From a virus, in the IMG/VR virus record IMGVR_UViG_3300037475_000199, positions 1-64,000 of that record: 64,000 nucleotides of DNA; one strand, 5' to 3'. The stretch's first letter is position 1. Every line of letters begins with the position of its first letter. The notes beneath the pieces were generated by a model, which worked only from the letters and a program-made list of their open reading frames with translations, ran no database searches and was not told the origin of the DNA. Position numbers and translations under genes: made by a program. Shown piece by piece: positions 2,948 to 62,347 of this stretch.

Positions 2948-3478
2948 ATGTGGGCAAAAGAAGATCAAAGAAAATCAGACCAAGCTTTTAGAGAAAGACG
3001 AAGAGCACGTACACATATTGAAATACCAATCAGTAAAATTTGTTCTGAATGTTTAATAGACAAACCGGCTAGTGAATTTACAAGAGACAAAGTCTCTAAA
3101 GATGGTTTAAAATTTCATTGCAAAGCTTGTACTAAAAAAGAAAATGATACTTGGAAAAACAAAAACTGGTTTAAAAAATTATTACATACCGCAAAATCAA
3201 CTTCGAAAAAATATAATCTTTTATTTGATCTGGATGAAGATTTTATAATTGGTTTGTTTAACTATCAAGATAGAAAGTGTTTTTACCTTGGAATAGATTT
3301 AGAGCCAGCATTTAATAGAAGAAAATTAAATTCTCCATCATTAGATAGAATAGATTGCAATAAAGGATATACTAAGGATAATGTGATTTTATGTTCACAA
3401 TTTGCCAATTTAGGTCGGTGTGATGTTCCTTTTGAAGAATTTAAAAATTTTTGCGATCAACTTATAAACAAGACTTGA
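2948..3478 (+). CDS. Endonuclease VII-like / HNH-type nuclease with Zn ribbon
   Basis: CSEC...CKAC zinc ribbon. C-terminal SLDRIDCNKGYTKDNVILCSQFANLG resembles the Endonuclease_7/HNH core (hlDHdh...vRGlLC..CN..lG). Confidence 0.45.
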   Translation: MWAKEDQRKSDQAFRERRRARTHIEIPISKICSECLIDKPASEFTRDKVSKDGLKFHCKACTKKENDTWKNKNWFKKLLHTAKSTSKKYNLLFDLDEDFIIGLFNYQDRKCFYLGIDLEPAFNRRKLNSPSLDRIDCNKGYTKDNVILCSQFANLGRCDVPFEEFKNFCDQLINKT

Positions 3479-3807
3479 AACAAATGCGAAAATTTAATAT
3501 GAAATGTTTTATTTGCAATAATGAGCTTGAAGCTCACACCGTTGGATTAGGTCACTTTTTAGTGTGCCCAATAGATAATATTATTGCTACATTAGGTGAT
3601 GACGGAAAAGTGAAGCACTATTCTTGTTATTATAAACAATATTCATTTAATATTAATTATATAACAAATAAAACAACTGTATCTAAGCAATCATTATCTC
3701 AGTTTAATGAACATACAATAATTACAATTATTGACAGTGCAATTTCTATGCCAACGTCATCAGATGATTTTTTAAAAAAAATTAAGACCATCTTGACATA
3801 TATGTAA
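3451..3807 (+). CDS. hypothetical Cys/His-rich protein
   Basis: ORF in the gene array with a C-x2-C...H motif. Confidence 0.35.
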   Translation: MRSTYKQDLKQMRKFNMKCFICNNELEAHTVGLGHFLVCPIDNIIATLGDDGKVKHYSCYYKQYSFNINYITNKTTVSKQSLSQFNEHTIITIIDSAISMPTSSDDFLKKIKTILTYM

Positions 3808-4014: not shown

Positions 4015-4377
4015 ATGGAATTAACTTGTATATTTTGTCATAATAAATTAATTTTGAGAAATTCTAATTCCGCAATGGAAGGTTATTTTTGTGTTTATCA
4101 AAATGAACATGAAAATGTTAGAAAAAATCATTGGGCTTGGACTTGTCGTAATGATAACTATGAAGTTGAAATTGATGTCATTAATATAATAGTTGATAAA
4201 TATCAATTATGCGCCTCTTTTATGTCTAATAATACTAGATTACTAATCGAATCTAATAAAAATGGCGACGAAATCAAAGATACAATACTAATTATTCCTG
4301 AATTAGATTTTTTCTTTCGTATAAAAACTGAAGAAGATTTTATGAATAAAGTTAAATCTCTCTTATTATTTATGTAA
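4015..4377 (+). CDS. hypothetical protein
   Basis: ORF that is adjacent and co-directional in the array. Confidence 0.35.
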   Translation: MELTCIFCHNKLILRNSNSAMEGYFCVYQNEHENVRKNHWAWTCRNDNYEVEIDVINIIVDKYQLCASFMSNNTRLLIESNKNGDEIKDTILIIPELDFFFRIKTEEDFMNKVKSLLLFM

Positions 4378-6787: not shown

Positions 6788-7229
6788 TATTAAGAAAGAA
6801 TTAGTTATGATTGAAAAAATGTCAGATTTAAATCTAGATAAATTAGATCCTAAGGCTGAAGATTATTTAGATCAATTAGATAATTTGGTAAAAGAAAGTT
6901 TAGGAGTTTCATTCTCAGAATTAAAAGCTCCTATTATTTCTTATGTTGCCAGTCATTCTGAAGAATTGTCTTTGCAATTTCCTAATATTGCACCATATGG
7001 AGATTATTCTAAGTTAATTGAAGATAATGATGGTATGTCAGAATTTTTAAAAAAACTAGATCAACCAACTGATTGGAAGATTGCAGTTTTAGAAGAAGAT
7101 AAAAAATATGGCTTACTGAAATTTGGTTTCATTTGTACATCAGTTGATGATGGTGATTCGTTAGAAGGTTTTACTTATGTAACTATGTCTGGCAAGATTA
7201 AACACTCTTTTGCACAATATATTGGATGA
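6777..7229 (+). CDS. hypothetical acidic protein
   Basis: ORF only. Confidence 0.35.
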   Translation: MFNNIKKELVMIEKMSDLNLDKLDPKAEDYLDQLDNLVKESLGVSFSELKAPIISYVASHSEELSLQFPNIAPYGDYSKLIEDNDGMSEFLKKLDQPTDWKIAVLEEDKKYGLLKFGFICTSVDDGDSLEGFTYVTMSGKIKHSFAQYIG

Positions 7230-7510
7230 AAAACCTTACTGATGAAGAAATTGCTGAAGGTTGCGTTATGTCAGCTGATGGTATAAAACGGTGGTATGAT
7301 GAGAATAGACATTATCATCGTCTTGGTGGTCCAGCTATTTTAGGTTTAAATGGAAATCAATTATGGTATAAGCATGGCAGACGTCATTGTTTATGTGGTC
7401 CTGCTGTTGATGTAGATTGGAATAAAGAGTGGTGGGTTGAAGGCGAAAAGATAGAATGTTCTTCTCAAGAAGAGTTTGAACAAATTTTAAAGTTAAAAGC
7501 ATTTTGGTAA
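7226..7510 (+). CDS. MORN-repeat (MORN_2/YwqK-like) protein with LKLKAFW tail
   Basis: Repeats of the W[YW]..NG..HR..GPA type. C-terminus CSSQEEFEQILKLKAFW. Confidence 0.55.
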   Translation: MKNLTDEEIAEGCVMSADGIKRWYDENRHYHRLGGPAILGLNGNQLWYKHGRRHCLCGPAVDVDWNKEWWVEGEKIECSSQEEFEQILKLKAFW

Positions 7511-10131: not shown

Positions 10132-10512
10132 ATGACATTAAAAGAAATACTAAATTCCCTGCGTTGTCCATTATGTGAATCACAAGTAGATGGAATCTAT
10201 AGTTATTCACCACGATTTTATTGTGCTACTGAAAAAGATCATTATAATGTATGGTTTAAAGATAATTTAATTAAAAAAGAAACTATTAATTTGTATGATT
10301 ATAATAAATTAATTAAGTATGAGATCATTAAAATTTATGATGGTGACAATATAACAACTAAAGTTGTTATGGAAAATATTGATGCAGAAGGTAGAGAGAT
10401 TTTTACTTTTGAAGATAGAAGTTTTACGATTGGAATGAGTTTGTTTGATTTTAGGAACTTTAATTTAGATACCGCTTTAAATAAAATAAAAACTATTTTA
10501 TTATTTAAATAA
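10132..10512 (+). CDS. hypothetical protein
   Basis: ORF only. Confidence 0.35.
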   Translation: MTLKEILNSLRCPLCESQVDGIYSYSPRFYCATEKDHYNVWFKDNLIKKETINLYDYNKLIKYEIIKIYDGDNITTKVVMENIDAEGREIFTFEDRSFTIGMSLFDFRNFNLDTALNKIKTILLFK

Positions 10513-11457: not shown

Positions 11458-12033
11458 ATGAGTAAGTACTCTGAGATATTAGAACAAGCCGATTTATTCT
11501 GTTTTGCTGTTGTTAGCAAGGTTTTTGGACCCTATAAACGCGAATCAGATGGTCGTCAAATTGTTATTATTAGAGATGAAAGCGGAAATACAAGAACTGT
11601 TTCATATCCTAAATATTTAATGGAACAACATTTAAATAGAGTACTTGATCCTGATAAACACACAGTTGATCATTGGGACTCTAATAAAGATAATAATGAT
11701 ATTAGTAATCTTCGAATTATGCCAAGAGATGAGCATTCCAGAGAAGACACTCGCAGAGTTAAATTAGTAAAATTTAAATGTAAATTATGTGACAAAGAGT
11801 TTGAAAGATCTCCTCGTCTTATTAGAGATAAGGCTAAGAAGAATAAAGCTGGACCCTTTTGCTCTAGACCATGCGCTGGGCGTTACAGTCGAAAGTTACA
11901 ACTTAAGCTGATAGACAAGCTGGGTCCACAGCCAATGGTTGACAGCGAATATTATAAAAAGAAATACGCATCCTCTTACGTTGATGTAGAAAATTTATTT
12001 ATAGATTATTTTTGTGATATTTGGGAAGAATAA
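11458..12033 (+). CDS. HNH homing endonuclease
   Basis: TVDHWDSNKDNNDISNLRIMPRDEH is an HNH motif. A CKLC...CSRPC zinc ribbon follows. Confidence 0.6.
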   Translation: MSKYSEILEQADLFCFAVVSKVFGPYKRESDGRQIVIIRDESGNTRTVSYPKYLMEQHLNRVLDPDKHTVDHWDSNKDNNDISNLRIMPRDEHSREDTRRVKLVKFKCKLCDKEFERSPRLIRDKAKKNKAGPFCSRPCAGRYSRKLQLKLIDKLGPQPMVDSEYYKKKYASSYVDVENLFIDYFCDIWEE

Positions 12034-12094: not shown

Positions 12095-12592
12095 ATGAAT
12101 AAATACAATTATACAATTAAAGATAACTACTTATTATTTTGGAGTGGTCACTTTTCTAATTGGTATCCCGCCTCATTTATTATAGGATCAATGACATTTA
12201 ATTGTGTTGAACAATATATGATGTACATGAAAGCTAAAACTTTTAATGACCAAGAGACTATGGATAAAGTTATGGCAACTTTAGATGCTAAAGAACAAAA
12301 GAAATTGGGTCGTGGAGTTAAAAACTTCAACCCTGTTGCTTGGGATCTTGTAAAGGAAGAAGTTGTTTATGATGGTTGTTTTGCTAAATATTTACAAAAC
12401 TTAGATCTTAAAGAAGATATTATTAAAACAAATGATTTAATGCTTGTTGAAGCATCTCCATATGATAAGATTTGGGGAATTGGAATGAGCGCAAAAGATC
12501 CTGATGTCACTGATGAAAGTAAGTGGAAGGGTGAAAATTTATTAGGCAAAGCCTTAATGAAAGTTCGAAATAAATTAAAAGGAAACGCATGA
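12095..12592 (+). CDS. NADAR (DUF1768/YbiA-like) domain protein, copy 1
   Basis: FWSGHFSNWYPASF...CVEQYMMYMKA...LLGKALMKVR matches the NADAR signature (F...S.FSNF...F.....EH.yQa.K). Confidence 0.55.
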   Translation: MNKYNYTIKDNYLLFWSGHFSNWYPASFIIGSMTFNCVEQYMMYMKAKTFNDQETMDKVMATLDAKEQKKLGRGVKNFNPVAWDLVKEEVVYDGCFAKYLQNLDLKEDIIKTNDLMLVEASPYDKIWGIGMSAKDPDVTDESKWKGENLLGKALMKVRNKLKGNA

Positions 12593-12951
12593 GCATTGAG
12601 AAATTTGATGATTTAATTGGCAAGACATTTGTAGAAGTTAAAAATGATAATTATGATGAATTAGTTTTTAAACTAAAAGATGGTAGTGGATATAAATTTT
12701 ATCATTCACAAGACTGTTGTGAAAGTGTATCAATTGAAGACATTATTGGAGATCTTTCTGATTTATGTGGATCCCCAATAATAGAGGCAGAGGAAATTTC
12801 TTCTGAACCACCAAGACAAGAATATAATCATGAGTCATGTACTTGGACATTTTATAGATTCTCTACTGTTAAAGGAACTGTAACTGTTCGTTGGTTAGGA
12901 ATTTCCAATGGTTATTATTCTGAAAGTGTATCTTTCGGAGAATTTAAATGA
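12589..12951 (+). CDS. hypothetical protein
   Basis: ATGA overlap. Confidence 0.4.
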   Translation: MSIEKFDDLIGKTFVEVKNDNYDELVFKLKDGSGYKFYHSQDCCESVSIEDIIGDLSDLCGSPIIEAEEISSEPPRQEYNHESCTWTFYRFSTVKGTVTVRWLGISNGYYSESVSFGEFK

Positions 12952-13268
12952 AAAAAGATACTTTAAAAGATTTTTTTCGTGGTTGGTTCATTGGTAATTT
13001 TAGCCCAACTCTTATTAAAACTAATGAAGTGGAAATTGGAGTGAAAAGATATAAGGCAGGAAATTCTGAAGCAGCTCATCATCATAAGATAGCTACTGAA
13101 ATAACAGTTATTATTTCTGGGGAAGTAGAAATGAATGGCGTTAAGTATGTTGAAGATGATATTATTGTAATTGACCCCAATGATAGTACAGACTTTAAAT
13201 GTCTTACCGACGTTGTAACCGTGGTAGTTAAATATCCTGGTGCAAACAACGACAAATATGTTGATTAA
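12948..13268 (+). CDS. cupin-fold small protein
   Basis: G.K.......AAHHHKIATEITVIISGEVEM.G matches the cupin two-His pattern. Confidence 0.4.
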   Translation: MKKDTLKDFFRGWFIGNFSPTLIKTNEVEIGVKRYKAGNSEAAHHHKIATEITVIISGEVEMNGVKYVEDDIIVIDPNDSTDFKCLTDVVTVVVKYPGANNDKYVD

Positions 13269-13663: not shown

Positions 13664-13687
13664 AACTTAAAGTTTCTTGGTTAAGAA

Positions 13688-13716
13688 GGCTGGCTTTGGT
13701 CCAGCCTTTTCTTTTT
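13688..13716 (+). terminator. intrinsic terminator
   Basis: GGCTGG-CTTTGGT-CCAGCC hairpin followed by TTTTCTTTTT. Confidence 0.6.
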
Positions 13717-15230: not shown

Positions 15231-15746
15231 ATGGTAACAAAACTTGAAATAGAAAGAAAATACTTAGTAAAATTCCCAGACTCCTGGTCGAGTTTGTCTG
15301 CCCTATTTGATCAACTGGTGGATGTTAAAAGAATATCACAAACTTATTTAAAACCCAAAGAAGGTGAACCTTCAGGTAGAGTTAGAAAAACTATTCAAGG
15401 ATTGACTGGAGATACTGATACGGTGTATCATTACAATCAAAAGCATTTCGTTGAAGCAGGTGTTAATAAAGAGACAGAAAAAGAAATTACCCGTAAACAA
15501 TACGAAAAATATTTAGAAAATCCGCTTCCTAATAAATTTACTTTAGAGAAAACCAGATTTGTTTTTAAATATAAAGATCAGTGCTTTGAGTTAGATGTTT
15601 TTAAGGGACCACTTAAAGGGCTGGCTATTTTAGAGATAGAACTTAAAAATAAAAAACAAAAAGTAGAATTGCCTCCTTATTTAAAAATAATTAAAGAAGT
15701 TACTAGTGATAAAAAATATAATAATTTTTCACTTTGTGAAAAATGA
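15231..15746 (+). CDS. CYTH-domain (CyaB/ThTPase-type triphosphate tunnel metalloenzyme) protein
   Basis: N-terminal LEIERKYLV is the hallmark ExExK start of CYTH. Size about 170 aa. Confidence 0.5.
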   Translation: MVTKLEIERKYLVKFPDSWSSLSALFDQLVDVKRISQTYLKPKEGEPSGRVRKTIQGLTGDTDTVYHYNQKHFVEAGVNKETEKEITRKQYEKYLENPLPNKFTLEKTRFVFKYKDQCFELDVFKGPLKGLAILEIELKNKKQKVELPPYLKIIKEVTSDKKYNNFSLCEK

Positions 15747-16078: not shown

Positions 16079-16082
16079 AAAT

Positions 16083-16177
16083 ATAAAGTTGCGTGAGTGG
16101 ATTAAACGATCACCCGAGTCAGGGTGAGAAAGAACTTATAAAAAGTCTTTCCAAAAGTTCGAATCTTTTACTTTATA
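16083..16177 (+). tRNA. aberrant type II tRNA-like gene (18-nt anticodon arm; possible 8-nt loop; pseudogene?)
   Basis: Acceptor ATAAAGT pairs with ACTTTAT. Three-bp D-stem CGT/ACG. Anticodon region TCACCCGAGTCAGGGTGA. Long variable hairpin GAAAGA...TCTTTC. T-arm AAAAG-TTCGAAT-CTTTT. No CCA. Confidence 0.35.
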
Positions 16178-16182
16178 TTTAT

Positions 16183-17726: not shown

Positions 17727-17962
17727 ATTATTTATTAGTAAATGATGAGCCCTTTCCAAGGGAATTCATTTTAGTTAAAGAACATCATACAATACCAATT
17801 GGCACTCATTATGTTATTGAACCGGCAGCTGCCTATCATTCTGTTGTTAAAATGAAAAATGGAAAAGAGTTTGAGTGCAATATAACTCATAAAGTCCTAT
17901 TAGAGTTTACTGTAAAGCCATGTACAGTTGAACAGTTTTTAAAATTTAAATTATTTATATGA
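17723..17962 (+). CDS. 'LKxF-tail' family small protein
   Basis: Ends ...FLKFKLFI. ATGA-coupled. Confidence 0.45.
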   Translation: MNYLLVNDEPFPREFILVKEHHTIPIGTHYVIEPAAAYHSVVKMKNGKEFECNITHKVLLEFTVKPCTVEQFLKFKLFI

Positions 17963-18210
17963 AATATTTAAAGATAAATGATGAAAAGATTCCCTCAGAA
18001 GTTTTAATAACTTTTATTGATCGTTTAGGTAAAGAACAAACCAATCATTATTGTTTCAGATCTTCTAAAAGTAAAACATATTTAATATGTCACACAATAA
18101 ATGGAAAGATTTTAAAAAATATAATAAATTATTTCATGCAATTTATATTAAGTAATCCACATACTCCCATGACTTTAAAGAAATTTAAAAAATTAAAAGC
18201 ATTTATCTAA
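17959..18210 (+). CDS. 'LKxF-tail' family small protein
   Basis: Ends ...LKKFKKLKAFI. Confidence 0.45.
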   Translation: MKYLKINDEKIPSEVLITFIDRLGKEQTNHYCFRSSKSKTYLICHTINGKILKNIINYFMQFILSNPHTPMTLKKFKKLKAFI

Positions 18211-18667: not shown

Positions 18668-19051
18668 ATGGAAGTTATTGATAATATAAATAATGTATAT
18701 GTTATTAAAAGAAACCTGGCAATTTTAAAAAGATTAGATCCTGAAGGTCATTTTGAATATTCGGTGGGTAATTTTATTTTAAAAATATTTACTCACCGGG
18801 TAGGATCTCAACCCATTGATAATAAGAATGATAGAGTTACTTTTTATGATAAAGTAGACGTTAATCTTTATGAAAAAATAAATGGTTTAGCGAACTATAT
18901 TAAAGTTTTTAGTGATACAAGATTTAGCTCTTGTCCTGCCATTCATTTTGAAGGATCAAATTTTTATGATTTAAATGGATTACCGCTTATTAATCTTTGT
19001 GAGTTAATCAAATTTTTATGTAAAATATCTAACCTATCAGCTTTTTTATGA
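18668..19051 (+). CDS. hypothetical protein with LSAFL tail ('LKxF-tail' family, divergent)
   Basis: Ends ...KFLCKISNLSAFL. Confidence 0.4.
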   Translation: MEVIDNINNVYVIKRNLAILKRLDPEGHFEYSVGNFILKIFTHRVGSQPIDNKNDRVTFYDKVDVNLYEKINGLANYIKVFSDTRFSSCPAIHFEGSNFYDLNGLPLINLCELIKFLCKISNLSAFL

Positions 19052-20452: not shown

Positions 20453-20710
20453 ATGGCTGATTCAAATCCTAACTTTAATTTTTTTATGTTTAAAAACAAT
20501 GGATATACAATCCAAGTAATAATTAAATTTAATAACAATAAATTAGAATTAAAGTTAAAGTTTTTTGATATTAATTATAATTTAATTGGAAATAGTTCTT
20601 TAAATTTTAATATAATAAATAGAAAAATTAAATGGGAACAACCTGTTTGGATAAGCCAAGATTGTATGGATTACTGTGACAAACTCTTAAATTTAAGAGC
20701 ATTTGCATGA
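20453..20710 (+). CDS. 'LKxF-tail' family small protein
   Basis: Ends ...DYCDKLLNLRAFA. Confidence 0.45.
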   Translation: MADSNPNFNFFMFKNNGYTIQVIIKFNNNKLELKLKFFDINYNLIGNSSLNFNIINRKIKWEQPVWISQDCMDYCDKLLNLRAFA

Positions 20711-20955
20711 TAAGTTATAGGTTTTCAGATAAGGGCAAAATTTTTTCTAAAACTGATTATATTATTTTTATTAATTCTAACTTTATTGAAATTGATTTTC
20801 ATATTTATAATAAAGGTAAAATATTAATCTCTACTTCGGCTGAATTTAAAATTGATAATAGTTCTATTAATTGGAATGAACGATTAATAGAATTTATTTC
20901 TGATGAATGTAAAGAATATTGTAATAAGTTGATAAAATTAAAAGCATTTACGTAA
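20707..20955 (+). CDS. 'LKxF-tail' family small protein
   Basis: Ends ...EYCNKLIKLKAFT. ATGA overlap. Confidence 0.45.
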   Translation: MISYRFSDKGKIFSKTDYIIFINSNFIEIDFHIYNKGKILISTSAEFKIDNSSINWNERLIEFISDECKEYCNKLIKLKAFT

Positions 20956-23711: not shown

Positions 23712-24008
23712 ATGTATATTTATAAAAATCATACAGACACTCATTTACTTTCTGTTGAAATGAAATTTATAAAGATGTCTAAAAAAACTGTTGGATATGA
23801 TAAAGGTATTTGTATTGAAATAAAAGGATATACGATTGATGATTATAATTTTGAATATACTTTAGGATCATATTCTTATCCATATCCAATTTTTGAAGGA
23901 GAAATTTTATGGAATCCTCTATCTAAAATGGACAAAGAATTTGATATAGATGTGGCGGATTTAAAAAAGTTTTGTGAAAAAATAGTAAAGTTAAAAATAT
24001 TTGAATGA
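23712..24008 (+). CDS. 'LKxF-tail' family small protein
   Basis: Ends ...FCEKIVKLKIFE. Confidence 0.45.
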   Translation: MYIYKNHTDTHLLSVEMKFIKMSKKTVGYDKGICIEIKGYTIDDYNFEYTLGSYSYPYPIFEGEILWNPLSKMDKEFDIDVADLKKFCEKIVKLKIFE

Positions 24009-24625: not shown

Positions 24626-25036
24626 ATGAATTTTTTAAATTTAAATGAAGTAAAAGAATGTTTGAGTGCTTTAAATAGAGTGCAAGACAATTTATTTGCA
24701 GATAATTTTGAATCGTTAAAAATAAATAATTTTAAAATAGAATTTCGAGCAGGACAACATAGTTTTTGTTATCCAAGACAAAAACTAAAATGTATCATAG
24801 ACTACGAATCAATTCAAATAAGTATATCTGACTATAATGAAGCCGGCATTATTTCAATGATCCGACCATTAAAAGATAATAGACTTTCATATTTTAGTTG
24901 GGCAAATTGCTTTTCTTTCAAAACTAATCGGCAGCTTGTTCAAGCTAGTTATATTGGTTGTAATATACCGATTTCTACTGCTTGTCAAATAGTTAAAGAT
25001 CTTTATAAGGTAAGTCAGCTCAAAACTTTTTTCTAA
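24626..25036 (+). CDS. hypothetical protein with QLKTFF tail (family-like)
   Basis: Ends ...YKVSQLKTFF. Confidence 0.4.
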   Translation: MNFLNLNEVKECLSALNRVQDNLFADNFESLKINNFKIEFRAGQHSFCYPRQKLKCIIDYESIQISISDYNEAGIISMIRPLKDNRLSYFSWANCFSFKTNRQLVQASYIGCNIPISTACQIVKDLYKVSQLKTFF

Positions 25037-25097: not shown

Positions 25098-26006
25098 ATG
25101 AATACGGCAGAACTAATTAAACAATTGCGTGAATTTACCCAAGCTGGGATGAAGGATTGTATTGATGCTTTAAAAGAATCTGGAAATGATTTAGAAAAAG
25201 CCATTGATATTATTAAAGTCAAAGGAAAAAACATTGTTTCTGGTCGTTCTGGTAGAATAGCATCAGAAGGTTTAGTGGTAATAAGATCATTACCATATAC
25301 AAATGCTATTGCTATGTTGGAAGTAAATTGTCAAACTGATTTCGTAGCTCGCAGCGAACAATTTCAATCATTAGCTAATATAGCTATGCAAGGCTTAGTT
25401 GTTGCAGTAACTAACAATCAAACATGGGATGGTAAAGACAATATAACTACTGCTGCTATTGAAAATGTAACTTCATCTACCAAAGAAAATATTGTTGTTC
25501 GTCGATGGTGGGTAGAAGAAGTAATTGATCCAACAGCCAAAGTATTTCATTATCTTCATAATGGAGATCAATTGGGAGTTATTCTTACTTTGCAAGCTCC
25601 TTCTGTTGAGGCGGCAAGCGACCCAAGATTTATTGCTCTTGGAAATGATTTAGCTATGCAAGTAGCCGCAATGAGTCCAGTAGCAATTTCAGCCGAGCAT
25701 GTATTGCCCGAGGTTAAAGAAAGGCAGCAAGCTATCTTTGAAACTCAATTAAAAGAAGCCAATAAACCAGAAACTGCCTGGGCAAAGATTTTAACTGGCA
25801 AGTTTAATAAGTGGTATTCTGAATCCTGTTTATTAGAACAGGAATCTGTGTTACATCCAAAATCTTCTGTTAAAGATGTTATTGCTTTAGTCTCTAAGCA
25901 GATTGGTGGAGATATTACTGTAGCTAATATGATTAGATGTCAAGTTGGTGAAGGTATAGTAAAAGAAAAAATTGGTTTAGCTGATGAAGTTGCAAAGTTA
26001 ATGTAA
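25098..26006 (+). CDS. tsf: translation elongation factor Ts (EF-Ts)
   Basis: N-terminal UBA-like LIKQLREFTQAGMKDCIDAL. Internal LEVNCQTDFVA is identical to the E. coli EF-Ts core motif. C-terminal RCQVGEGIVKEK compares with RFEVGEGIEK. Confidence 0.75.
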   Translation: MNTAELIKQLREFTQAGMKDCIDALKESGNDLEKAIDIIKVKGKNIVSGRSGRIASEGLVVIRSLPYTNAIAMLEVNCQTDFVARSEQFQSLANIAMQGLVVAVTNNQTWDGKDNITTAAIENVTSSTKENIVVRRWWVEEVIDPTAKVFHYLHNGDQLGVILTLQAPSVEAASDPRFIALGNDLAMQVAAMSPVAISAEHVLPEVKERQQAIFETQLKEANKPETAWAKILTGKFNKWYSESCLLEQESVLHPKSSVKDVIALVSKQIGGDITVANMIRCQVGEGIVKEKIGLADEVAKLM

Positions 26007-29723: not shown

Positions 29724-30314
29724 ATGAATTTTATAGATTGTGAATTTTGCGAAGATTGGAAACAAGAGAAAAAAATTAAGGAATCTTGTCCTTGTTGTGC
29801 TGGTCGTGGTAAAATTCAGAATCCTGAAGAACATTTATGCAATAATTGTGGGAGCAGAATGCACCCACCTAAATCAGATCCAAATTGGCAATTTCCTAAT
29901 GGTCTTAGTAGAGCAAAGGTTGTTGGAGATTATAGTTCTACACATTTAACAGATGATGTCATATATAGATTTTCTATTTGTGAATTTTGTTTAAGACTCA
30001 TGTTTAATAATTTTGTAATTCCTCCAGCCTTATCTGATAATAGGGCTGATGCTATTGAATTTGATTATAAGTTAGATAAAACAAATTATGAATATGAACA
30101 ATGGAGGCAGTCGGGCGGATTTTCTCAAGCTTATAAAAATAGAAAGTGTAATGCAGTTAAAGACTGTATAAATTCTGCTATTTATACTATACTTCATGGC
30201 AGTGATACTTTTGATGAAAAATGTGCTTGTGAAGAACATGTAAGTGAATATAGAAATTATAAATGGTATAAAATAGTTCCATTCATCCCAGATACACTAA
30301 AGGCATTTGTATGA
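29724..30314 (+). CDS. Cys-rich hypothetical protein
   Basis: Multiple CxxC motifs (CEFCEDW...CPCCAG...CNNCG). Confidence 0.4.
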   Translation: MNFIDCEFCEDWKQEKKIKESCPCCAGRGKIQNPEEHLCNNCGSRMHPPKSDPNWQFPNGLSRAKVVGDYSSTHLTDDVIYRFSICEFCLRLMFNNFVIPPALSDNRADAIEFDYKLDKTNYEYEQWRQSGGFSQAYKNRKCNAVKDCINSAIYTILHGSDTFDEKCACEEHVSEYRNYKWYKIVPFIPDTLKAFV

Positions 30315-30928
30315 AACAATATCCTTCAATAACTAAAGATGTTCGACAAGATACATATATTTATGCTTTTGATAAGTTAGATGGATCTAATATTAGAGCT
30401 GAATGGAATTATAAAAAAGGATTTTATAAATTTGGAAGTAGAACTCAGCTAATTGATTCCTCAAATAAACCTTTGGGAAAATCAATTAATTTGATTCAAG
30501 AAAAATATAGTGATGATTTAACAAGAATCTTTAAAGAACAACGCTATCAAGATGCTTTATGCTTCTTTGAATTCTATGGACCAAGCTCTTTTGCTGGATT
30601 ACATTCAGAAAACGAAGACCAAACAGTAATTCTGCTTGACGTCAACCCTTATAAGCAAGGCATAATGGAGCCAGAACAATTTATAAATTTGTTTGGCAGC
30701 CTAGACATACCTAAAGTCCTGTATCAAGGAAACGTAACAGCAGAGCTATTTGATAGCGTTAAACAGTCAACTTTAAAAGACATGACCCTGGAAGGCATTG
30801 TTTGTAAAGGAACTAATGACAAAAAAACTAAAATGCCAATTATGTTTAAAGTTAAATCTAATAAATGGCTAAATCTATTAAAAGAACACTGCAAAGGTGA
30901 TGAATCATTATTTACTAAATTAGCGTAA
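30311..30928 (+). CDS. RNA-ligase-like covalent nucleotidyltransferase (KxDGxN motif I)
   Basis: AFDKLDGSNIR is motif I. EFYGPSSFAG, EGIVCKG and FKVKSNKW resemble motifs III, IV and V of ATP-dependent RNA/DNA ligases. Confidence 0.45.
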   Translation: MKQYPSITKDVRQDTYIYAFDKLDGSNIRAEWNYKKGFYKFGSRTQLIDSSNKPLGKSINLIQEKYSDDLTRIFKEQRYQDALCFFEFYGPSSFAGLHSENEDQTVILLDVNPYKQGIMEPEQFINLFGSLDIPKVLYQGNVTAELFDSVKQSTLKDMTLEGIVCKGTNDKKTKMPIMFKVKSNKWLNLLKEHCKGDESLFTKLA

Positions 30929-33494: not shown

Positions 33495-33576
33495 TTAAAC
33501 ATATGTTTGAATCTGTTATATAGGTTCATGTTCCCAGAGAGGGAACTTTATAATTTAGACAACATGGAGAATGTTA

Positions 33577-34590
33577 ATGAAAAATTTTGAATTTTGTGTA
33601 TTTATTGGTCAATTTAGTCCATTCCATAATGGTCAATCTGCTATTCTTCAAGAAGCTTTAAATCAAGCAGAAACAGTTATTGTTGTCCTTGGTTCAGCTA
33701 AAAAGGCAAGAAACATTGAAGTTTCATGGAATGTCGAGCAACGCATTGAGATGATTAAGTCAACTCTTTCTGTCGAAGATCAGGTTCGTATTAAATTTGT
33801 TCCATTACGAGATCACATTTATAGTGATACAATTTGGGTAACTGAATTATTAGAAAAAATGACTCCCATTTTAAATGGATCAAAGAATGTTTCTTTGGTT
33901 TGTAGAGAAAAGTATAATAAAGAATATCTTAAATTGTTCCCGCAATGGGAATTAATCCCAGTTAAAACTACTGAGCCGCATCATGATGCGGAAGATATTA
34001 GACATCGTTATTTTACATATGATACATCTTATTCTCGTTTCGTTCACGAAAATGTAGCTAAGATGATGAAAGAATTTCAAGACACTCCAATCTTTCAAAC
34101 CTTAAAAAGTGACTTTGATTATGTCAAGAAATATAAGGCAGCATGGGAAGGCGCCCCATTTAAACCAATCTTTGTTACAGTAGATGCTGTAATTGTTAAA
34201 TCTGGACACGTACTTTTAGTGAAGCGTAAGGGTAATCCTGGTAAAGGGCAAATGGCATTACCAGGTGGATTTTTAGATCAAGAAGAGCTAATTGAAGATG
34301 CTGTTTTAAGAGAAGTAAAAGAAGAGACTGCTATTAAAATGTCTAAAGATGAACTTCGAGCCTGCATTACATATTCTGAAGTTTTTGATGCCAAAAATCG
34401 TTCATTGCGTGGGAGAACAATTACTCACGCATTTTTAATTGATTTAGGTTCCGGAACCCTACCAAAAGTAAAAGGTTCTGATGATGCAGAAAAAGCTTTT
34501 TGGCTTCCTTTGAACGAAGTCAAGGACCGTGAAGATGAATTTTTTGAAGATCATTTTCACATTATTAGTTCATTCACAAACAAACTATAA
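33577..34590 (+). CDS. natV: bifunctional NMN adenylyltransferase / Nudix hydrolase (NatV/NadM-Nudix type)
   Basis: N-terminal GQFSPFHNGQ is the nucleotidyltransferase (H/T)xGH-like motif. Nudix box GGFLDQEELIEDAVLREVKEETA. ATG 33577 after GGAGA. Confidence 0.6.
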   Translation: MKNFEFCVFIGQFSPFHNGQSAILQEALNQAETVIVVLGSAKKARNIEVSWNVEQRIEMIKSTLSVEDQVRIKFVPLRDHIYSDTIWVTELLEKMTPILNGSKNVSLVCREKYNKEYLKLFPQWELIPVKTTEPHHDAEDIRHRYFTYDTSYSRFVHENVAKMMKEFQDTPIFQTLKSDFDYVKKYKAAWEGAPFKPIFVTVDAVIVKSGHVLLVKRKGNPGKGQMALPGGFLDQEELIEDAVLREVKEETAIKMSKDELRACITYSEVFDAKNRSLRGRTITHAFLIDLGSGTLPKVKGSDDAEKAFWLPLNEVKDREDEFFEDHFHIISSFTNKL

Positions 34591-34633: not shown

Positions 34634-36085
34634 ATGAGAACAGTAATCGCAAGAAAAGAAGACTTAGAACATAGCAACGTTACCGACACTGATAGTTACA
34701 AGTTTAGCCATTTTATTTTATATAAGAAGGCTGGCGTAACTAGAATGTTTAGTTATCTAGAGTCTCGTGGTGGTGAATTTGATGTTTCTACTATTTCAGC
34801 CCTACAAGTAGCATTACATAGATACATTGCAAAAGGATTTAAGAGAAAGGACATTGATCGTGCAGAAAAGCTTGCAGCTAAACATGGCGTCCCTTTCAAT
34901 CGTCCAGGATTTGAAGCCATGTATAACAAATATAATGGTAAGTTTCCAGTTAGAATTAGATCTATTCCTGAAGGTATGATAGTTCCAGTTTCAACTGCAC
35001 TATTAACTATTGAGTGTTGTGACGAAGATTGTTTTTGGATTGTCAATTGGCTAGAGACTTTATTATCTAGAATTTGGTATCCTTCTACTATTGCAATTGC
35101 AAGTCGTTCAGTCAAGAAACTTTGGAAGCACTTCTTAGATATGACTTCCGATAATACTGATCTCGAAATTGGATTTAAGCATCATGATTTCGGATCTAGA
35201 GGAGTAACCTGCTTTGAGCAAGCCGAATTGGGCGGTATGGCTCACTTGTTGAGCTTCTTTGGTTCTGATACTTTAGCGGGTGTTGAGCTTGCCAATTACT
35301 ACTATGATTGTGATATGTCAGGATTCTCGATTTGTGCTACTGAACATTCTACCATGACTATTTTTGGTCGTGCTGGTGAACGTCAAGCACTTATTGATTG
35401 GATTACTGAAACATTGGTTAATGTTCCAAATATTCCTGGTGTACCTAAAGTGTCTGCTTGTGTTGGTGACAGCTACAATATCTATGATTTTACTACACTA
35501 GTAAGTCGTGATGATGAGGTAAGAAACTTAATTGCTAATTCAGGGGGCACTTTAGTAGTAAGACCAGATAGCGGTAAACCATCTGAAGTTCTTCCTAAAA
35601 TATTGGAATTGTTTGAGCAAAACTTGCCATCAGGATCTATTACTGTTAATAGTAAGGGATACAAAGTTCTACCTTCATATTTGAGACTTATTTGGGGTGA
35701 TGGCATTAACCGTCGTTCAATGAAAGATATTCTTCAATTAGTAGTTGATCTTGGTTGGAGTGCATCTAATATTGCGTTAGGTTCTGGTGGCGGTTTATTG
35801 CAAGATGTTAATCGTGATACACAGAAGTTTGCTTTTAAGTGTTCGTTTGCTGAAGCAAAAGGCGTCTCAATTGATGTTCTTAAAGATCCAATCACTGATC
35901 CTGGAAAGAAATCAAAAGCGGGTCGCCTTGACACTATTAAGCTTCCAGATGGTGAAATTAAAACAGTCTCCATTGGAGTAAATGAAGAATGTCATCCTCT
36001 TAGCATTATGAATACTGTTTTTGAAATGGGAGATATTACTTATCACACTACGTTCGCTGAATGTAGAGACAGAATGGCGCTATGA
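34634..36085 (+). CDS. nadV: nicotinamide phosphoribosyltransferase (NAMPT/NadV)
   Basis: DTDSYKFSHF near the N-terminus matches the NAMPT DSYK motif. About 480 aa, the size of NadV. Confidence 0.65.
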   Translation: MRTVIARKEDLEHSNVTDTDSYKFSHFILYKKAGVTRMFSYLESRGGEFDVSTISALQVALHRYIAKGFKRKDIDRAEKLAAKHGVPFNRPGFEAMYNKYNGKFPVRIRSIPEGMIVPVSTALLTIECCDEDCFWIVNWLETLLSRIWYPSTIAIASRSVKKLWKHFLDMTSDNTDLEIGFKHHDFGSRGVTCFEQAELGGMAHLLSFFGSDTLAGVELANYYYDCDMSGFSICATEHSTMTIFGRAGERQALIDWITETLVNVPNIPGVPKVSACVGDSYNIYDFTTLVSRDDEVRNLIANSGGTLVVRPDSGKPSEVLPKILELFEQNLPSGSITVNSKGYKVLPSYLRLIWGDGINRRSMKDILQLVVDLGWSASNIALGSGGGLLQDVNRDTQKFAFKCSFAEAKGVSIDVLKDPITDPGKKSKAGRLDTIKLPDGEIKTVSIGVNEECHPLSIMNTVFEMGDITYHTTFAECRDRMAL

Positions 36086-37690: not shown

Positions 37691-37960
37691 ATGAAAAACT
37701 CTTATAAAATGAAAGATGGAATTAATATTAGAGATGATGGCGCTATTTGTTATGTTAAAAATAGAAAATATCACAGAGAAGATGGACCGGCTATAATTTT
37801 AGAAGGACAATATAGATGTTGGCTTCAAAATGATGTATATTACCGTCTTGATGGACCAGCCGTGGAAGATGATAATGGTTATAAAGAATGGCATGTTGAT
37901 GATAAAGTATTCTTTACAGAAGAAGAGTATAGAATGTGGAAAATTAAAACTTTTAGTTAA
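37691..37960 (+). CDS. MORN-repeat protein with KIKTFS tail
   Basis: NRKYHREDGPA and VYYRLDGPA repeats. Confidence 0.5.
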   Translation: MKNSYKMKDGINIRDDGAICYVKNRKYHREDGPAIILEGQYRCWLQNDVYYRLDGPAVEDDNGYKEWHVDDKVFFTEEEYRMWKIKTFS

Positions 37961-37970
37961 GGATTAAAAT

Positions 37971-38885
37971 ATGTGTAATGTACTCGTAGGCACAGCTGTT
38001 GGTGATGCTTTAGGTGTTCCATTTGAAACTTTTTTGATAAATAATCCTCTTCTTTTAGATTGGGATGGAACAACTTATCTTGGAAGTAAATATCATGGTT
38101 TAGAACCAGGTCAATACTCAGATGACACTCAACTATCTATTTTGGTTGCTAAATCATTAATATTAAATTCTGGATTTAATCCAGACGATTTAGCTGCAAG
38201 ATATCAAGATTGGTTTTTTTCTGGCGTTGCACGAGGTTATGGTAAAACAACAAAGTTAGCTATGGAAGCTCTTAAAAGTGGTAAACATTGGAATGAATCT
38301 GGGATTGCCGGCTCTTTAGGTAATGGAACGGCTATGCGTGCAGCTCCATTTGGAGTTTACTTTAGAAATGATTTTAAACAATTAATTGCTGCAGTAAAAA
38401 TAGATTCAGCAATTACGCATGTTTCAGAAGATGCTGAAGCTGGAGCTATTGCTATTGCATTAACAGCAGCTTATGCCGTTAATCGTAACACTGAAAATCT
38501 TTTAGACAAAATTTGTGAAAATTTACCAGACTGTAAAGTTAAAAAAACAATTTCTAGTTTGGATGCATTAATTAACGCAGATAATATTACTCCTCCACAA
38601 GCTTTAAGAGTATTGGGGACAAAGGCTAATGTACAAGAAACTGTGCCCGCAGCATTATATTGTTTTCTGAAATTTGATAATTATCACGATGCTGTGCTTG
38701 CTGCAATTAAAGCTGGTGGTGATACCGACACTACTGCCGCAATAGTTGGAGCTTTATTTGGAGCCAGAGATGGAATCAAAAAGATAGATAGAAAATTTTA
38801 TTCGGTAGAAGATTTTGATAAATTAATAGAGTTAGATAGCCAGCTTTATAACAGATCTAATTCATTATTTTTTCCTAGAAACTAA
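37971..38885 (+). CDS. ADP-ribosylglycohydrolase (ARH/DraG family)
   Basis: N-terminal VLVGTAVGDALGVPFE matches the ARH GdAlG...E motif. C-terminal AGGDTDTTAAIVGALFGA is the metal-binding D-T-D region. Confidence 0.6.
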   Translation: MCNVLVGTAVGDALGVPFETFLINNPLLLDWDGTTYLGSKYHGLEPGQYSDDTQLSILVAKSLILNSGFNPDDLAARYQDWFFSGVARGYGKTTKLAMEALKSGKHWNESGIAGSLGNGTAMRAAPFGVYFRNDFKQLIAAVKIDSAITHVSEDAEAGAIAIALTAAYAVNRNTENLLDKICENLPDCKVKKTISSLDALINADNITPPQALRVLGTKANVQETVPAALYCFLKFDNYHDAVLAAIKAGGDTDTTAAIVGALFGARDGIKKIDRKFYSVEDFDKLIELDSQLYNRSNSLFFPRN

Positions 38886-40444: not shown

Positions 40445-40473
40445 CATTTTTAAATGATTAGGATAGTGAAATG
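40445..40473 (+). promoter_or_regulatory. sigma70-like promoter (TTGACT-17-TAGGAT) within an ATGTG...CACAT inverted repeat
   Basis: Hexamers at the correct spacing. AAATGTGTGGTCTTGACTGCACATTT forms an inverted repeat over the -35. Confidence 0.35.
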
Positions 40474-40929
40474 GAAAACCACGAAACACCAGAAGCTATT
40501 AAAGCAAGGGCTGAACAAGCGGACCCTCTTGTTATGTATTTAATAGTAAGAGAAGAGTTAGAAATGAGTATTGGTAAAGCTTGTGCTCAATGCGCTCATG
40601 CTAGCCAAATGATCACTTTAAAATATTTGCCATTATATATTAAATATTTTGAAAAAGATATTGAGAATTCTGGTTGGATTGATAAAAGTTCATATGAAAG
40701 TTACTTAAGTTTTGTTGAATGGCTTGCCGGTTCTTTTCGTAAAGTGGTTCTTAAATCAGATGAAAAAGAATGGGTTAAAATCAAAAACGAGTTACCCAAC
40801 AACTCAATAATCGTTGTTGATGCGGGTTTAACCGAGCTTCAACCAAATACAGAAACAGTAATTGGTCTTTGGCCAATGAAAAGAAGTGAACGACCCAAAA
40901 TAATCAAAAAATTGCAAGTTTTAACATGA
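40471..40929 (+). CDS. peptidyl-tRNA hydrolase, PTH2 family
   Basis: PLVMYLIVREELEMSIGKACAQCAHAS aligns with the PTH2 core ([25 protein letters not shown]). Confidence 0.6.
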   Translation: MENHETPEAIKARAEQADPLVMYLIVREELEMSIGKACAQCAHASQMITLKYLPLYIKYFEKDIENSGWIDKSSYESYLSFVEWLAGSFRKVVLKSDEKEWVKIKNELPNNSIIVVDAGLTELQPNTETVIGLWPMKRSERPKIIKKLQVLT

Positions 40930-41255: not shown

Positions 41256-41503
41256 AAGTTATAGGATATCACCTAACTGAAATTAAAAAGGGTATTCTCG
41301 GCAAATCTTCTAAAATTCAAGAAGAGTTAGATGAATTGGTGGATGCCGAATTACAAAACAATAAAATATTAGCTTTAGTAGAGCTATCAGATTTATATGG
41401 AGCTTTGGAGGCTGTCGCTTCTTCTTACAATTGTTCTATGGATGATTTAAAGAAGATGTCTGATGCCACCAAAAGAGCGTTTACTAGCGGACATAGGAAA
41501 TGA
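41246..41503 (+). CDS. MazG-like nucleotide pyrophosphohydrolase (small all-alpha NTP-PPase)
   Basis: IQEELDELVDAELQNNKILALVELSDLYGALEAVA matches the EExxE...E..D pattern of MazG/HisE-type domains. Confidence 0.45.
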   Translation: MEIKVIGYHLTEIKKGILGKSSKIQEELDELVDAELQNNKILALVELSDLYGALEAVASSYNCSMDDLKKMSDATKRAFTSGHRK

Positions 41504-42039
41504 TTGATTATCACTTGATATCTAATTGTATTAAAAAATACGAAGATTTAGGTTACAAGTATATAGATGTTCCTTGGTTTACTACTGAAAAAATAGTTAA
41601 TATTACTTTGCCACCAGGCAAAAAACCTTTTCATATAAATAATGATTATTTAGTAGGTTCAGCAGAACAGTCTTTTTTACATTTAATTTTAGCTGGCGAA
41701 TTAAAAGATGGTAAATATGTTGCCGCTTCACCATGCTTTAGAGACGATGAAATAGATCAATATCATCAAAAATATTTTTTTAAAGTTGAACTGATTAATT
41801 ATTCCAATAGTTATAAGTTTGATTATTTTGATTTAATGAATGTTATTTCTGATGCACAAAGGACGTTATCTTCTTTATGTACCAAAACAATAAAATCTTC
41901 AAAAACAAATGAAGGCGTTGATTTATCAATAAATGATATTGAAATTGGATCATATGGTATACGACAATTTAGTAACTTTAATTGGATTTATGGAACTGGC
42001 TTGGCAGAGCCAAGATTTTCGAGTTTAAATTATGGATGA
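41500..42039 (+). CDS. mini class-II aminoacyl-tRNA-synthetase-like catalytic core
   Basis: Motif-2-like CFRDDEIDQYHQKYFFKVE (fRxE...H..F...E) and motif-3-like GTGLAEPRF (GxGxGxxR). Only 179 aa. Confidence 0.35.
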   Translation: MIDYHLISNCIKKYEDLGYKYIDVPWFTTEKIVNITLPPGKKPFHINNDYLVGSAEQSFLHLILAGELKDGKYVAASPCFRDDEIDQYHQKYFFKVELINYSNSYKFDYFDLMNVISDAQRTLSSLCTKTIKSSKTNEGVDLSINDIEIGSYGIRQFSNFNWIYGTGLAEPRFSSLNYG

Positions 42040-42667
42040 ATTTTTAATTATATCAGATGATGAAACTGAACGAAAAAGATATGCAAAAAAACTATTAAAG
42101 CAAGATTTTCTTACCAAAGAAAGTGAAAAGGCAAAAATTGCTATTACTAAGTTTTTAGAAGAAAATCCTGACATTAATATTGATTATGCCATTATTCATA
42201 TGAAAGATTCAATTTTAAGTACAATTAAATGCGCAGAAAAATTAGGAATTAGTCCAAAAGCTTTTCTTAGATTAAGAAAAAAGTATAATATTGTACCTGT
42301 CTCTGAAATTAAGAATAGTTATAAATCAAAAAGTTTTGCTCCGCATTTTTCAAAGAAAGCTACTAAGAATTTCTATAGCATTTATCAGCTAAAAAGAATT
42401 CCCAAATCAGAAATTGATTTATCTCAAAAAAGGTCGGGCAGTAATTTAAAGCTTGGAATTAAAATAAAATGGAAACCAAGAGGCTATCATTCAAATGGAA
42501 AATTAAAAGCTAGAACTGACTATTTGAGTAAATATGGATTTTTCGTTCTTTATAATCATAAAGATGATAATTATACTGTTAATAAAGATGACAAAAATAC
42601 AATTTTGTCAAAAAAAGAAGTAGATGTTTTGAATCAAAAATACTTACGATTAAAGAGCTTTGTATGA
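42032..42667 (+). CDS. hypothetical protein with RLKSFV tail
   Basis: Ends ...KYLRLKSFV. Confidence 0.4.
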   Translation: MDEFLIISDDETERKRYAKKLLKQDFLTKESEKAKIAITKFLEENPDINIDYAIIHMKDSILSTIKCAEKLGISPKAFLRLRKKYNIVPVSEIKNSYKSKSFAPHFSKKATKNFYSIYQLKRIPKSEIDLSQKRSGSNLKLGIKIKWKPRGYHSNGKLKARTDYLSKYGFFVLYNHKDDNYTVNKDDKNTILSKKEVDVLNQKYLRLKSFV

Positions 42668-62318: not shown

Positions 62319-62347
62319 ATGTATTAATAAAAGATTGGTTTCATTTT

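Follow-up and report, generated by a model that had tools for sequence, protein, structure and literature searches.

Two divergent NADAR-domain genes and their ADP-ribose-related neighborhoods in a 64-kb viral DNA window

The two NADAR genes and their families

The window analyzed here, i.e., the whole stretch of 64,000 nt that forms positions 1 to 64,000 of the IMG/VR virus record IMGVR_UViG_3300037475_000199, contains two genes encoding NADAR-domain proteins, which we denote NADAR1 and NADAR2. A first-pass annotation made from the sequence alone had reported two diverged NADAR genes, starting at 12095 and 59200, and had interpreted them, together with a macrodomain, an ADP-ribosylglycohydrolase (ARH) and a PARP-like gene, as an investment in reversing or controlling ADP-ribosylation. 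The observation was confirmed for all of these genes, and the interpretation is essentially right.

12095–12592, + strand: NADAR1, stand-alone "NADAR"-family N-glycosidase, 165 aa; ATG start after GGAG; Pfam NADAR
59200–59658, + strand: NADAR2, YbiA-type, core-only NADAR, 152 aa; ATG start at 59200; Pfam NADAR

Both proteins matched the Pfam NADAR model (PF08719, cutoff 35.1 bits) over nearly their full length, NADAR1 with 167.7 bits (E 3.3e-49) and NADAR2 with 117.2 bits (E 1.2e-33). The mechanical call of open reading frames (ORFs) places the start of NADAR2 at a TTG at 59191; the true start is the ATG at 59200, because homologs begin with MTIKFY and the TAA stop codon of the upstream gene lies at 59195–59197. 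The signature F..S.FSNF / EH.YQ..K, initially ascribed to both copies, fits only approximately (GHFSNWYP / VEQYMMYMK in NADAR1, GYLNNFKK / VESAYQAQK in NADAR2), but its Glu-x6-Lys spacing is exact in both, and alignment to characterized NADAR and YbiA proteins recovered the catalytic Glu/Lys pair (E43/K50 in PnNADAR, E36/K43 in T4) as E39/K46 in NADAR1 and E34/K41 in NADAR2.

The complex of PnNADAR from Phytophthora with ADP-ribose (8BAU) defines the residues E43, K50, R79, D86, W89, R93, E125, D130 and W133 (PMC11543638). The joint alignment yielded E39, K46, R73, W83, K87, E119, D124 and W127 for NADAR1, with Pro80 in place of D86, and E34, K41, Q65, W73, K77, E109, D114 and W117 for NADAR2. 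The equivalents of E43, K50, W89, E125, D130 and W133, among them the Trp, Asp and Glu that bind ADP-ribose, show no variation within either clade, and the key residues are constant across 60 relatives of NADAR1 and 49 relatives of NADAR2. The pyrophosphate-binding Arg (R79 in PnNADAR) is kept in NADAR1 as R73, whereas the NADAR2 clade differs from PnNADAR, YbiA and the phage protein Bas32, all of which have Arg at this site, by carrying Gln65, which is fixed in the close clade. The AlphaFold (AF2) model of NADAR1 (pLDDT 97.4) displays the fold of the NADAR superfamily, an alpha-helical core with small beta-hairpins, and its sole significant Foldseek matches in the PDB were the solved NADARs 8BAU (TM 0.87) and YbiA 2B3W (TM 0.78).

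The two copies share 33% identity over 121 aa and fall into different families. NADAR1 belongs to the stand-alone "NADAR" family (PnNADAR/SCO5665/AdfN-Bas60 type), as indicated by the structural match, by PnNADAR 8bau as the best PDB sequence match (E 5.7e-14; YbiA weaker, 1e-5), by a PnNADAR-type insertion at about aa 131–146 before the last helix, and by a neighbor-joining tree that places it, with moderate support, with phAPEC8 and Bas61 (bootstrap 74) and with PnNADAR (59). For NADAR2, YbiA 2b3w was the best PDB match (E 1e-21; PnNADAR weaker, 4e-7), the alignment showed the core domain only, with no insertion, and the tree joined it with YbiA and Bas32 (bootstrap 77). The residue at the E125 position of PnNADAR sorts the families: YbiA-like proteins have Glu, DarT1-linked antitoxins Asp, and phage proteins of the T4 type His (PMC11543638). 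T4 gp30.3, our control, had His there (H123), in agreement with the publication. NADAR2 has Glu at this position (E109) and no extension, and by its sequence it is of the YbiA type. A recent duplication was rejected in view of the 33% identity and of each copy being closer to proteins of other organisms; the two genes appear to come from two NADAR families and to have been acquired independently.

The two copies did not fit the remaining families of the superfamily. DarG1, the DarT1-linked antitoxin of the BC4488 family, and T4 gp30.3 (AdfN-T4) share with the window copies the superfamily, the Glu-x6-Lys pair and the expected chemistry on guanine-linked ADP-ribose (ADPr), but have Asp and His, respectively, where both window copies have Glu (PMC11543638). 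Furthermore, no N-terminal extension was needed in the alignment, no DarT adjoins either NADAR gene, and no ADP-ribosyltransferase (ART) besides the PARP was found among the scanned neighbors. The Pfam model Phage_30_3 (PF08010) gave 16.3 bits against a cutoff of 36 bits.

For comparison with experimentally validated phage NADARs, BASEL locus tags led us to bas61_0107 and bas62_0106 (AdfN-Bas60 type; Bas60-62) and bas32_0066 (AdfN-Bas32), to which T4 gp30.3 was added. NADAR1 is 42% identical to bas61_0107 (E 9e-38) and NADAR2 34% identical to bas32_0066 (E 5e-18), and the cross comparisons were weak. As proteins of the bas61_0107 type and bas32_0066 neutralize DarT1 and enable phages to grow again on hosts with DarTG1 (PMC11825919), the family of each copy includes a phage enzyme proven against DarT1. 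Both copies are phage-encoded orphans, as are these validated members. NADAR1 has in common with the AdfN-Bas60 type, PnNADAR 8BAU and SCO5665 of S. coelicolor the catalytic and ADPr-binding residues, the insertion before the last helix, the cluster in the tree and the orphan status without a toxin partner; its N terminus is shorter (165 aa vs 183 aa in the Bas61 protein), and AdfN-Bas60 stems from E. coli phages, whereas NADAR1 is from an uncultured megaphage and its activity against DarT1 is only predicted. NADAR2, like E. coli YbiA (2B3W) and AdfN-Bas32 from a T5-like phage, is core-only with Glu at the family-defining position. It differs from both in its setting, being tied to a macrodomain gene and a PARP gene, whereas YbiA belongs to the dinG-ybiB SOS operon (PMC11125620) and Bas32 to an RNase H region.

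In searches with defense-related models, NADAR1 gave a nearly full-length match to the PADLOC candidate-defense model PDC-M42C (E 2e-51), and NADAR2 matched the NCBIfam "NADAR family anti-phage protein" model DS32_2 weakly (76 bits, cutoff 240). Judging from these matches, close NADAR relatives would also occur in bacterial defense-candidate systems.

Genomic neighborhoods of NADAR2 and NADAR1

NADAR2 lies in a string of closely spaced genes downstream of the PARP gene.

54185–55690, + strand: PARP1/2-like ADP-ribosyltransferase with WGR, PARP_reg and PARP domains (Pfam); triad H369-Y403-E475
58389–58865, + strand: orphan DarG/TARG1-like macrodomain protein, 158 aa; DarG models and AF2 fold; conserved upstream partner of NADAR2
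58865–59197, + strand: small variable protein, 110 aa, between the macrodomain gene and NADAR2; HR.DGPA-type repeats, C-terminal tail ...KFKAFW
60228–60743, + strand: p171, 171 aa, conserved downstream neighbor of NADAR2

The macrodomain protein scored below the Pfam cutoff and was recognized by DarG models (PADLOC E 1.3e-8, NCBIfam E 2.7e-5); its AF2 model (pLDDT 95.2) has a macro fold, for which Foldseek returned the best TM with DarG (5M3E; 0.74/0.77), ahead of alphavirus nsP3 and TARG1. By profile, the closest PDB entry was the uncharacterized BT1257 (E 4e-8), with DarG farther away (E 2e-4). Like the chimallivirus AdfM (PMC13309987), the protein is stand-alone, keeps the ribose-contacting Asn (N22) and does not have the DarT-binding C-terminal domain. 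The position of the catalytic Lys80 of DarG (K78 in AdfM) is, however, taken by a family-invariant Gln75 (IINFPTK in DarG vs IVNLMGQ), which sets it apart from the DarG2/AdfM macrodomains, a placement that is not fully secure as a second, profile-based alignment shifts this region. The family comprises about 50 proteins, nearly all metagenomic, and Gln is also found in Bacteroides BT1257 (motif GQ), as opposed to the catalytic Lys in DarG and TARG1. The Gln-bearing family may constitute a mechanistically distinct class of macrodomains.

The PARP protein aligns to human PARP1/2 (E 2e-26), and its H369, Y403 and E475 are found without exception in 13 homologs from the clade. Equating E475 with the catalytic Glu of PARP1 rests on the likeness of its motif NDE[IL]ITY to YNEYIVY, which we take to be the PARP1 counterpart.

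The distances between the genes of the string p247, macrodomain, 110-aa protein, NADAR2 and p160 are 17, −1, +2 and −1 nt, and the string is not interrupted by any terminator-like site. To compare related loci, we fetched 82 loci via NADAR homologs, 18 of which contain a NADAR2 homolog of at least 48% identity and 62 a more distant one. A macrodomain homolog was located 0.5–1 kb upstream in all 18 close loci, a PARP homolog (53–90% identity, mostly 70–90%) 2–6 kb upstream in 16, and a p171 homolog downstream in 17 of them, whereas none of the 62 distant loci had macrodomain, PARP or p171 homologs. The PARP gene is the best conserved of these four. The 18 loci represent one clade of collinear genomes, so that shared ancestry inflates the association; they reduce to 15 independent contigs (12–13 by another count), since L005 and L006 lie inside L004, and L003 and L007 are copies from two databases with 100% identical DNA.

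The slot between the macrodomain gene and NADAR2 is empty in 5 of 14 IMG/VR loci, where the two genes directly adjoin, and in most of the others it is filled by unrelated small ORFs. For this reason the macrodomain-NADAR2 pair is taken as the conserved core, and the 110-aa protein was rejected as a core part of the module. The latter has a paralog at 7226–7510 and no Pfam or PHROG match. The proteins p160 and p171 likewise had no Pfam or PHROG match and no H-Y-E pattern by eye; a small YarT-like ART downstream of NADAR2, as the YarT-YbiA pairing might lead one to expect, was not found.

The pairing recurs in seven Lachnospiraceae-type genomes, in which a YbiA-type NADAR (40% identical to NADAR2) is situated 1.3 kb from a macrodomain homolog, amidst DUF3791-DUF3990/ART-PolyVal, LPD11 and YodL, all of them domains that belong to "polyvalent" proteins of mobile elements. 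These loci provide independent support for the macrodomain-NADAR2 pairing. In Sellimonas catena (L241:2177-5669; similar in L228, L230-L232, L239 and L244) the order is LigA, DUF3791/DUF3990 (ART-PolyVal-like), YbiA-type NADAR, LPD11, YodL and macrodomain. By gene content, the region looks like a mobile-element establishment or anti-defense region that has an ART of its own and two erasers. In other metagenome-assembled genomes (MAGs), NAMPT is located beside the macrodomain homolog (three Clostridia MAGs) or a PARP-like gene near it (a Butyrivibrio MAG).

Two further observations concern the flanks of this cluster. A radical SAM gene (55687–56949) begins just before the PARP gene ends; it is kept beside PARP, with 78–88% identity, in 3 of the 18 loci, corresponding to two contigs (L003/L007 and L009), and is absent from most. 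At 61656–63013, two calcineurin-like metallophosphoesterase genes overlap in tandem, and a Metallophos gene is also present downstream of NADAR2 in relatives.

NADAR1 overlaps its downstream neighbor; the features around it are as follows.

12589–12951, + strand: DUF7448 protein (Pfam E 1e-28); 4-nt overlap with NADAR1
12948–13268, + strand: cupin-like protein (weak Pfam Cupin_2); 4-nt overlap with the DUF7448 gene
13684–13710, + strand: terminator-like hairpin, 10-bp stem followed by a T run; pattern match, such sites occurring at background frequency

From these overlaps, NADAR1, the DUF7448 gene and the cupin-like gene are probably co-transcribed, and the hairpin may close the transcription unit. 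DUF7448 was ruled out as a functional partner of NADAR1, as it is missing from the closest relative, where the cupin-like gene is kept. The content of homing endonucleases beside NADAR1 varies: the window has an HNH_3 protein (11458–12033), and the closest relative has its homolog plus a LAGLIDADG gene on the opposite strand (L002:8498-9403).

For the neighborhoods of NADAR1-type genes we used the flanks of the best 80 of 307 loci (L083-L162, IMG/VR large-phage contigs). NAMPT was found within 6 kb in 33 of these 80, in 10 of them on the same strand and at most 155 nt away; an NMNAT-Nudix homolog occurred in 12 and a macrodomain homolog in 7. The NADAR1-type genes of these 33 loci stand within or beside NAMPT/NMNAT-Nudix operons, in some cases (L089, L090, L094) with a macrodomain gene 12 nt downstream. 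The neighborhood of NADAR with NadM/NadV has already been described by Iyer et al. (PMC9503650). The window contains such genes at a distance from NADAR1, together with the ARH named above.

33571–34590, + strand: NMN adenylyltransferase-Nudix fusion (NMNAT-Nudix, NadM-like); Pfam CTP_transf_like and NUDIX
34634–36085, + strand: nicotinamide phosphoribosyltransferase (NAMPT/NadV-like); Pfam NAMPT_N and NAPRTase
37971–38885, + strand: ADP-ribosylglycohydrolase (ARH/DraG family); Pfam ADP_ribosyl_GH, E 2.4e-68

NAMPT and NMNAT-Nudix are adjacent, as in the NARP2 pathway (bioRxiv 10.1101/2024.02.11.579819), and would make up a NARP2-like NAD+ reconstitution pair. The window also encodes an NAD-dependent DNA ligase (Pfam). 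The three genes together strengthen the picture of a gene set centered on NAD and ADP-ribose.

Possible roles and competing explanations

We lean slightly toward the view that NADAR1 and NADAR2 are two independently acquired, active nucleobase-ADPr glycohydrolases serving in AdfN-like counter-defense, NADAR2 being teamed with a complementary macrodomain. It builds on the domain identity, the fold of NADAR1, the catalytic residues, the family placement and the conserved neighborhoods that we observed, and on published activities. All four NADAR families strip ADPr from guanine on DNA and RNA, and none acts on thymine (PMC11125620, PMC11833690). ADPr on cytidine is also removed by the stand-alone NADAR and YbiA families (PMC12945103), and for E. 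coli YbiA activity in vitro extends to both guanine- and cytosine-linked ADPr (PMC11125620, PMC12945103). NADAR cuts at guanine-N2 and not at guanine-N1 or uracil-N3, whereas the TARG1/DarG macrodomains do the reverse (bioRxiv 10.64898/2026.03.31.715305; PMC13036486).

The substrates, the counter-defense role and the division of labor would then be the following. Both NADARs would hydrolyze the linkage of ADP-ribose to an exocyclic amine of the nucleobase (guanine-N2, probably cytosine too), releasing free ADP-ribose and restoring the base; as orphan antitoxin-like enzymes, they would clean phage DNA and/or RNA marked by host toxins (DarT1-like, pierisin/ScARP-like). Linkages to ring nitrogens (thymine/uracil-N3, guanine-N1), which are beyond the reach of NADARs, would fall to the macrodomain beside NADAR2, and protein-linked ADPr to the ARH, while NAMPT with NMNAT-Nudix would rebuild the NAD+ consumed by such defenses.

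Several points weigh against this proposal. Despite their activity in vitro, E. coli YbiA and T4 gp30.3 did not rescue DarT1 toxicity in cells (PMC11125620), so that in vitro activity in the family is no guarantee of a role in counter-defense. Within the NADAR2 cluster, Gln65 could alter the substrate, and with Gln75 at the site of the essential Lys80 of DarG, the assumed activity of the macrodomain on thymine-ADPr is doubtful. The neighborhoods appear to pull in two other directions: NADAR1-type genes are often within NAMPT/NMNAT operons, which points to metabolism of soluble NAD/ADPr, and the link between NADAR2 and the PARP of the phage suggests marks that the phage makes itself.

The former direction leads to an explanation that we regard as unlikely but worth considering, mainly for NADAR1. 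Alongside NAMPT and NMNAT-Nudix, one or both NADARs would act in the housekeeping of NAD+ and soluble ADPr, i.e., on small ADPr derivatives such as cADPR-type immune signals, toxic by-products or NAD+ intermediates, and not on nucleic acids. For NADAR1, the proximity of NAMPT and NMNAT-Nudix homologs to genes of its type gives this genuine comparative support; the NAMPT/NMNAT-Nudix pair in the window itself and the NAMPT genes adjoining macrodomain homologs in Clostridia agree with it, and Iyer et al. argued in 2022 that phage NADAR and macro proteins chiefly target soluble ADPr derivatives (PMC9503650). However, the clustering may merely mirror anti-defense islands, and a distance of 21 kb separates NADAR1 from NAMPT in the window. 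NARP2 works with two genes only, and NADAR is not part of its description (bioRxiv 10.1101/2024.02.11.579819). In the literature that we examined, no NADAR was reported to act on a soluble ADPr signal, and all tested members act on base-linked ADPr (PMC11543638, PMC11125620, PMC12945103). A role in damage control of the riboflavin pathway, with both copies acting as YbiA/COG3236-type N-glycosidases on reactive biosynthesis intermediates, is barely credible. Bacterial and plant NADARs do hydrolyze such intermediates according to Schuller et al. (PMC11543638), who cite Frelin et al. 2015, many homologs are labeled "ribA/ribD-fused" or "GTP cyclohydrolase II", and the NCBIfam model "riboflavin biosynthesis intermediates N-glycosidase" (TIGR02464, cutoff 73.7 bits) was exceeded by both NADAR1 (159 bits) and NADAR2 (108 bits). 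The first-pass annotation had held that an assignment to this subfamily would imply a different specificity; the assignment by the model was indeed obtained, but the implication does not stand. TIGR02464 does not discriminate between subfamilies, because the PnNADAR-like NADAR1 outscores the YbiA-type NADAR2, and membership of the YbiA subfamily does not imply another specificity, because the enzyme from E. coli that gave the subfamily its name is active on ADPr at guanine and cytosine. Moreover, no RibA, RibD or other riboflavin genes were present among about 45 scanned ORFs of the window, neither copy is a RibA/RibD fusion, and the neighborhoods consist of macrodomain and PARP genes, plus NAMPT in relatives. 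The simplest explanation for the "GTP cyclohydrolase" names is that annotations were carried over from fusion proteins, and such names on these phage genes are misleading.

The link of NADAR2 to PARP raises the question of marks written by the phage itself. NADAR2 and the macrodomain could form the eraser arm of a phage-run ADP-ribosylation cycle, in which they reverse or limit the marks that the WGR-PARP sets on nucleic acids or proteins of the phage or the host, comparable to bacterial PARP-PARG or toxin-antitoxin pairs; we consider this improbable. The PARP, macrodomain, NADAR2 and p171 homologs lie within about 6 kb in 16 of the 18 close loci and in none of the 62 distant ones, they persist while the intervening genes vary, the H-Y-E triad of the most conserved gene, PARP, is invariant, and a PARP-like gene lies near the macrodomain homolog in Butyrivibrio as well. 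The co-occurrence is nevertheless confounded by the shared ancestry of the collinear clade, and the PARP gene lies 2.7 kb upstream of the macrodomain gene, outside the tight string from p247 to p160, with five ORFs (one of them the radical SAM gene) in between. In addition, the known base marks of PARPs (uracil-N3, guanine-N1) are removed by TARG1/DarG-type macrodomains and not by the tested NADARs (PMC13036486; bioRxiv 10.64898/2026.03.31.715305). A broader form of the idea, to which we give slightly more credit while still thinking it doubtful, is a reversible phage ADP-ribosylation circuit, in which a WGR-PARP that senses DNA breaks would, in the course of infection, mark the chromatin or nucleic acids of host or phage and two non-canonical erasers, the macrodomain with Gln for Lys and NADAR2 with Gln for Arg, would edit or confine the marks. 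If true, this would be the first writer/eraser ADP-ribosylation signaling system run by a bacteriophage, beyond simple anti-toxin defense.

Returning to the counter-defense proposal, phage NADARs have only recently been shown to counteract DNA-ADP-ribosylating toxins, with three phage types tested. According to earlier surveys, over 48% of medium and jumbo phages have NADAR, and a few jumbo phages have PARP (PMC9503650, PMC7824862). The sets of NAD+-ADPr genes that Iyer, Aravind et al. described in jumbo phages likewise combine NADAR, macro, Nudix and NadV/NadM in a large phage; what differs here is the presence of two NADARs of different families in one genome, and the clade-conserved arrangement of PARP, macrodomain, NADAR2 and p171 was not found described in the two articles. 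Given this frequency and the literature of 2023–2026, the NADAR genes of the window are ordinary as such, and the value for follow-up work lies in the PARP-macrodomain-NADAR2 cluster and in the two Gln substitutions. With two divergent NADARs in a single genome, each representing one of the two families that also act on cytidine-ADPr, the window offers a system for asking how labor is split between DNA and RNA, guanine and cytosine, or host-made and self-made marks. The YbiA-type copy, the unusual macrodomain and the conserved PARP form a module that can be cloned for studying the interplay of writer and erasers in a phage, and the frequent location of NADAR1-type genes in NAMPT operons suggests that removal of ADP-ribose may be linked to NAD+ reconstitution, which can be tested.

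The phage genome and additional observations

The window has a GC content of 30%, is coded almost entirely on the plus strand and contains 17 tRNA genes. Megablast with 9 kb around NADAR1 found no GenBank phage match, and the genome is without a close cultured relative. Identical NADAR1 and macrodomain proteins are present on a 70.9-kb JGI contig. The closest relative is IMGVR_UViG_3300009545_000018, an IMG/VR viral contig of 447,763 bp that is collinear with the window, and more distant NADAR2 relatives sit on contigs of 447–486 kb, from which we infer that the window is part of an uncultured phage of the 450-kb class (approximately). Both NADAR types occur together in this 448-kb relative, about 50 kb apart, and in an uncultured phage of 595 kb, about 10 kb apart. 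With NADAR1 as the query, 785 places in 782 records were hit among GenBank phages, a crude count in that a single query can miss a divergent second copy; two NADARs per phage seem to be uncommon.

Two MAG contigs were also recovered. One from "Candidatus Berkiella sp." (L170, JBFWUT010000082.1, 4.8 kb) carries the macrodomain-NADAR2-p171 block with 53%, 61% and 44% identity, and one from "Puia sp." (P0262, 1.6 kb) holds the macrodomain gene alone. Both are most likely mis-binned phage fragments and at best a weak hint at the host.

Promoter-like sites around both NADAR genes occurred at the level of shuffled sequence (30% GC) or only about 2 standard deviations above it, and none was singled out.

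A C-terminal tail, typically ...F..K[IL]K.LK[AIT]F-x-COOH, is shared by 15 of the 102 plus-strand ORFs of at least 80 aa, with 0.33 expected by chance. The N-terminal parts of these ORFs come from several unrelated families, and the tail is rarer in related loci, each of which has 0–3 such ORFs. It may serve these proteins as a shared tag for interaction or targeting. The 110-aa protein upstream of NADAR2 and its paralog are among the ORFs concerned.

865–1140, 1137–1439, 3451–3807, 4015–4377, 7226–7510, 10132–10512, 17959–18210, 18668–19051, + strand: ORFs with the shared tail
20707–20955, 23712–24008, 24626–25036, 29724–30314, 37691–37960, 42032–42667, 58865–59197, + strand: ORFs with the shared tail, continued

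The window also holds a dense set of genes for translation and RNA repair. Besides the 17 tRNA genes, it comprises EF-Ts, a PTH2 peptidyl-tRNA hydrolase, a Thg1-like tRNA-His guanylyltransferase, a short fragment resembling class-II aminoacyl-tRNA synthetases (weak), an RNA-ligase-like protein (weak) and a CYTH domain protein.

1462–27697, 25098–26006, 40471–40929, 44268–45029, 41500–42039, 30311–30928, 15231–15746: translation and RNA-repair set

Adjoining the genes for tRNA-Cys and tRNA-Ser, at 16082–16178, is a tRNA-like gene of 97 nt with a four-base anticodon (agtc), to which ARAGORN assigned no identity.

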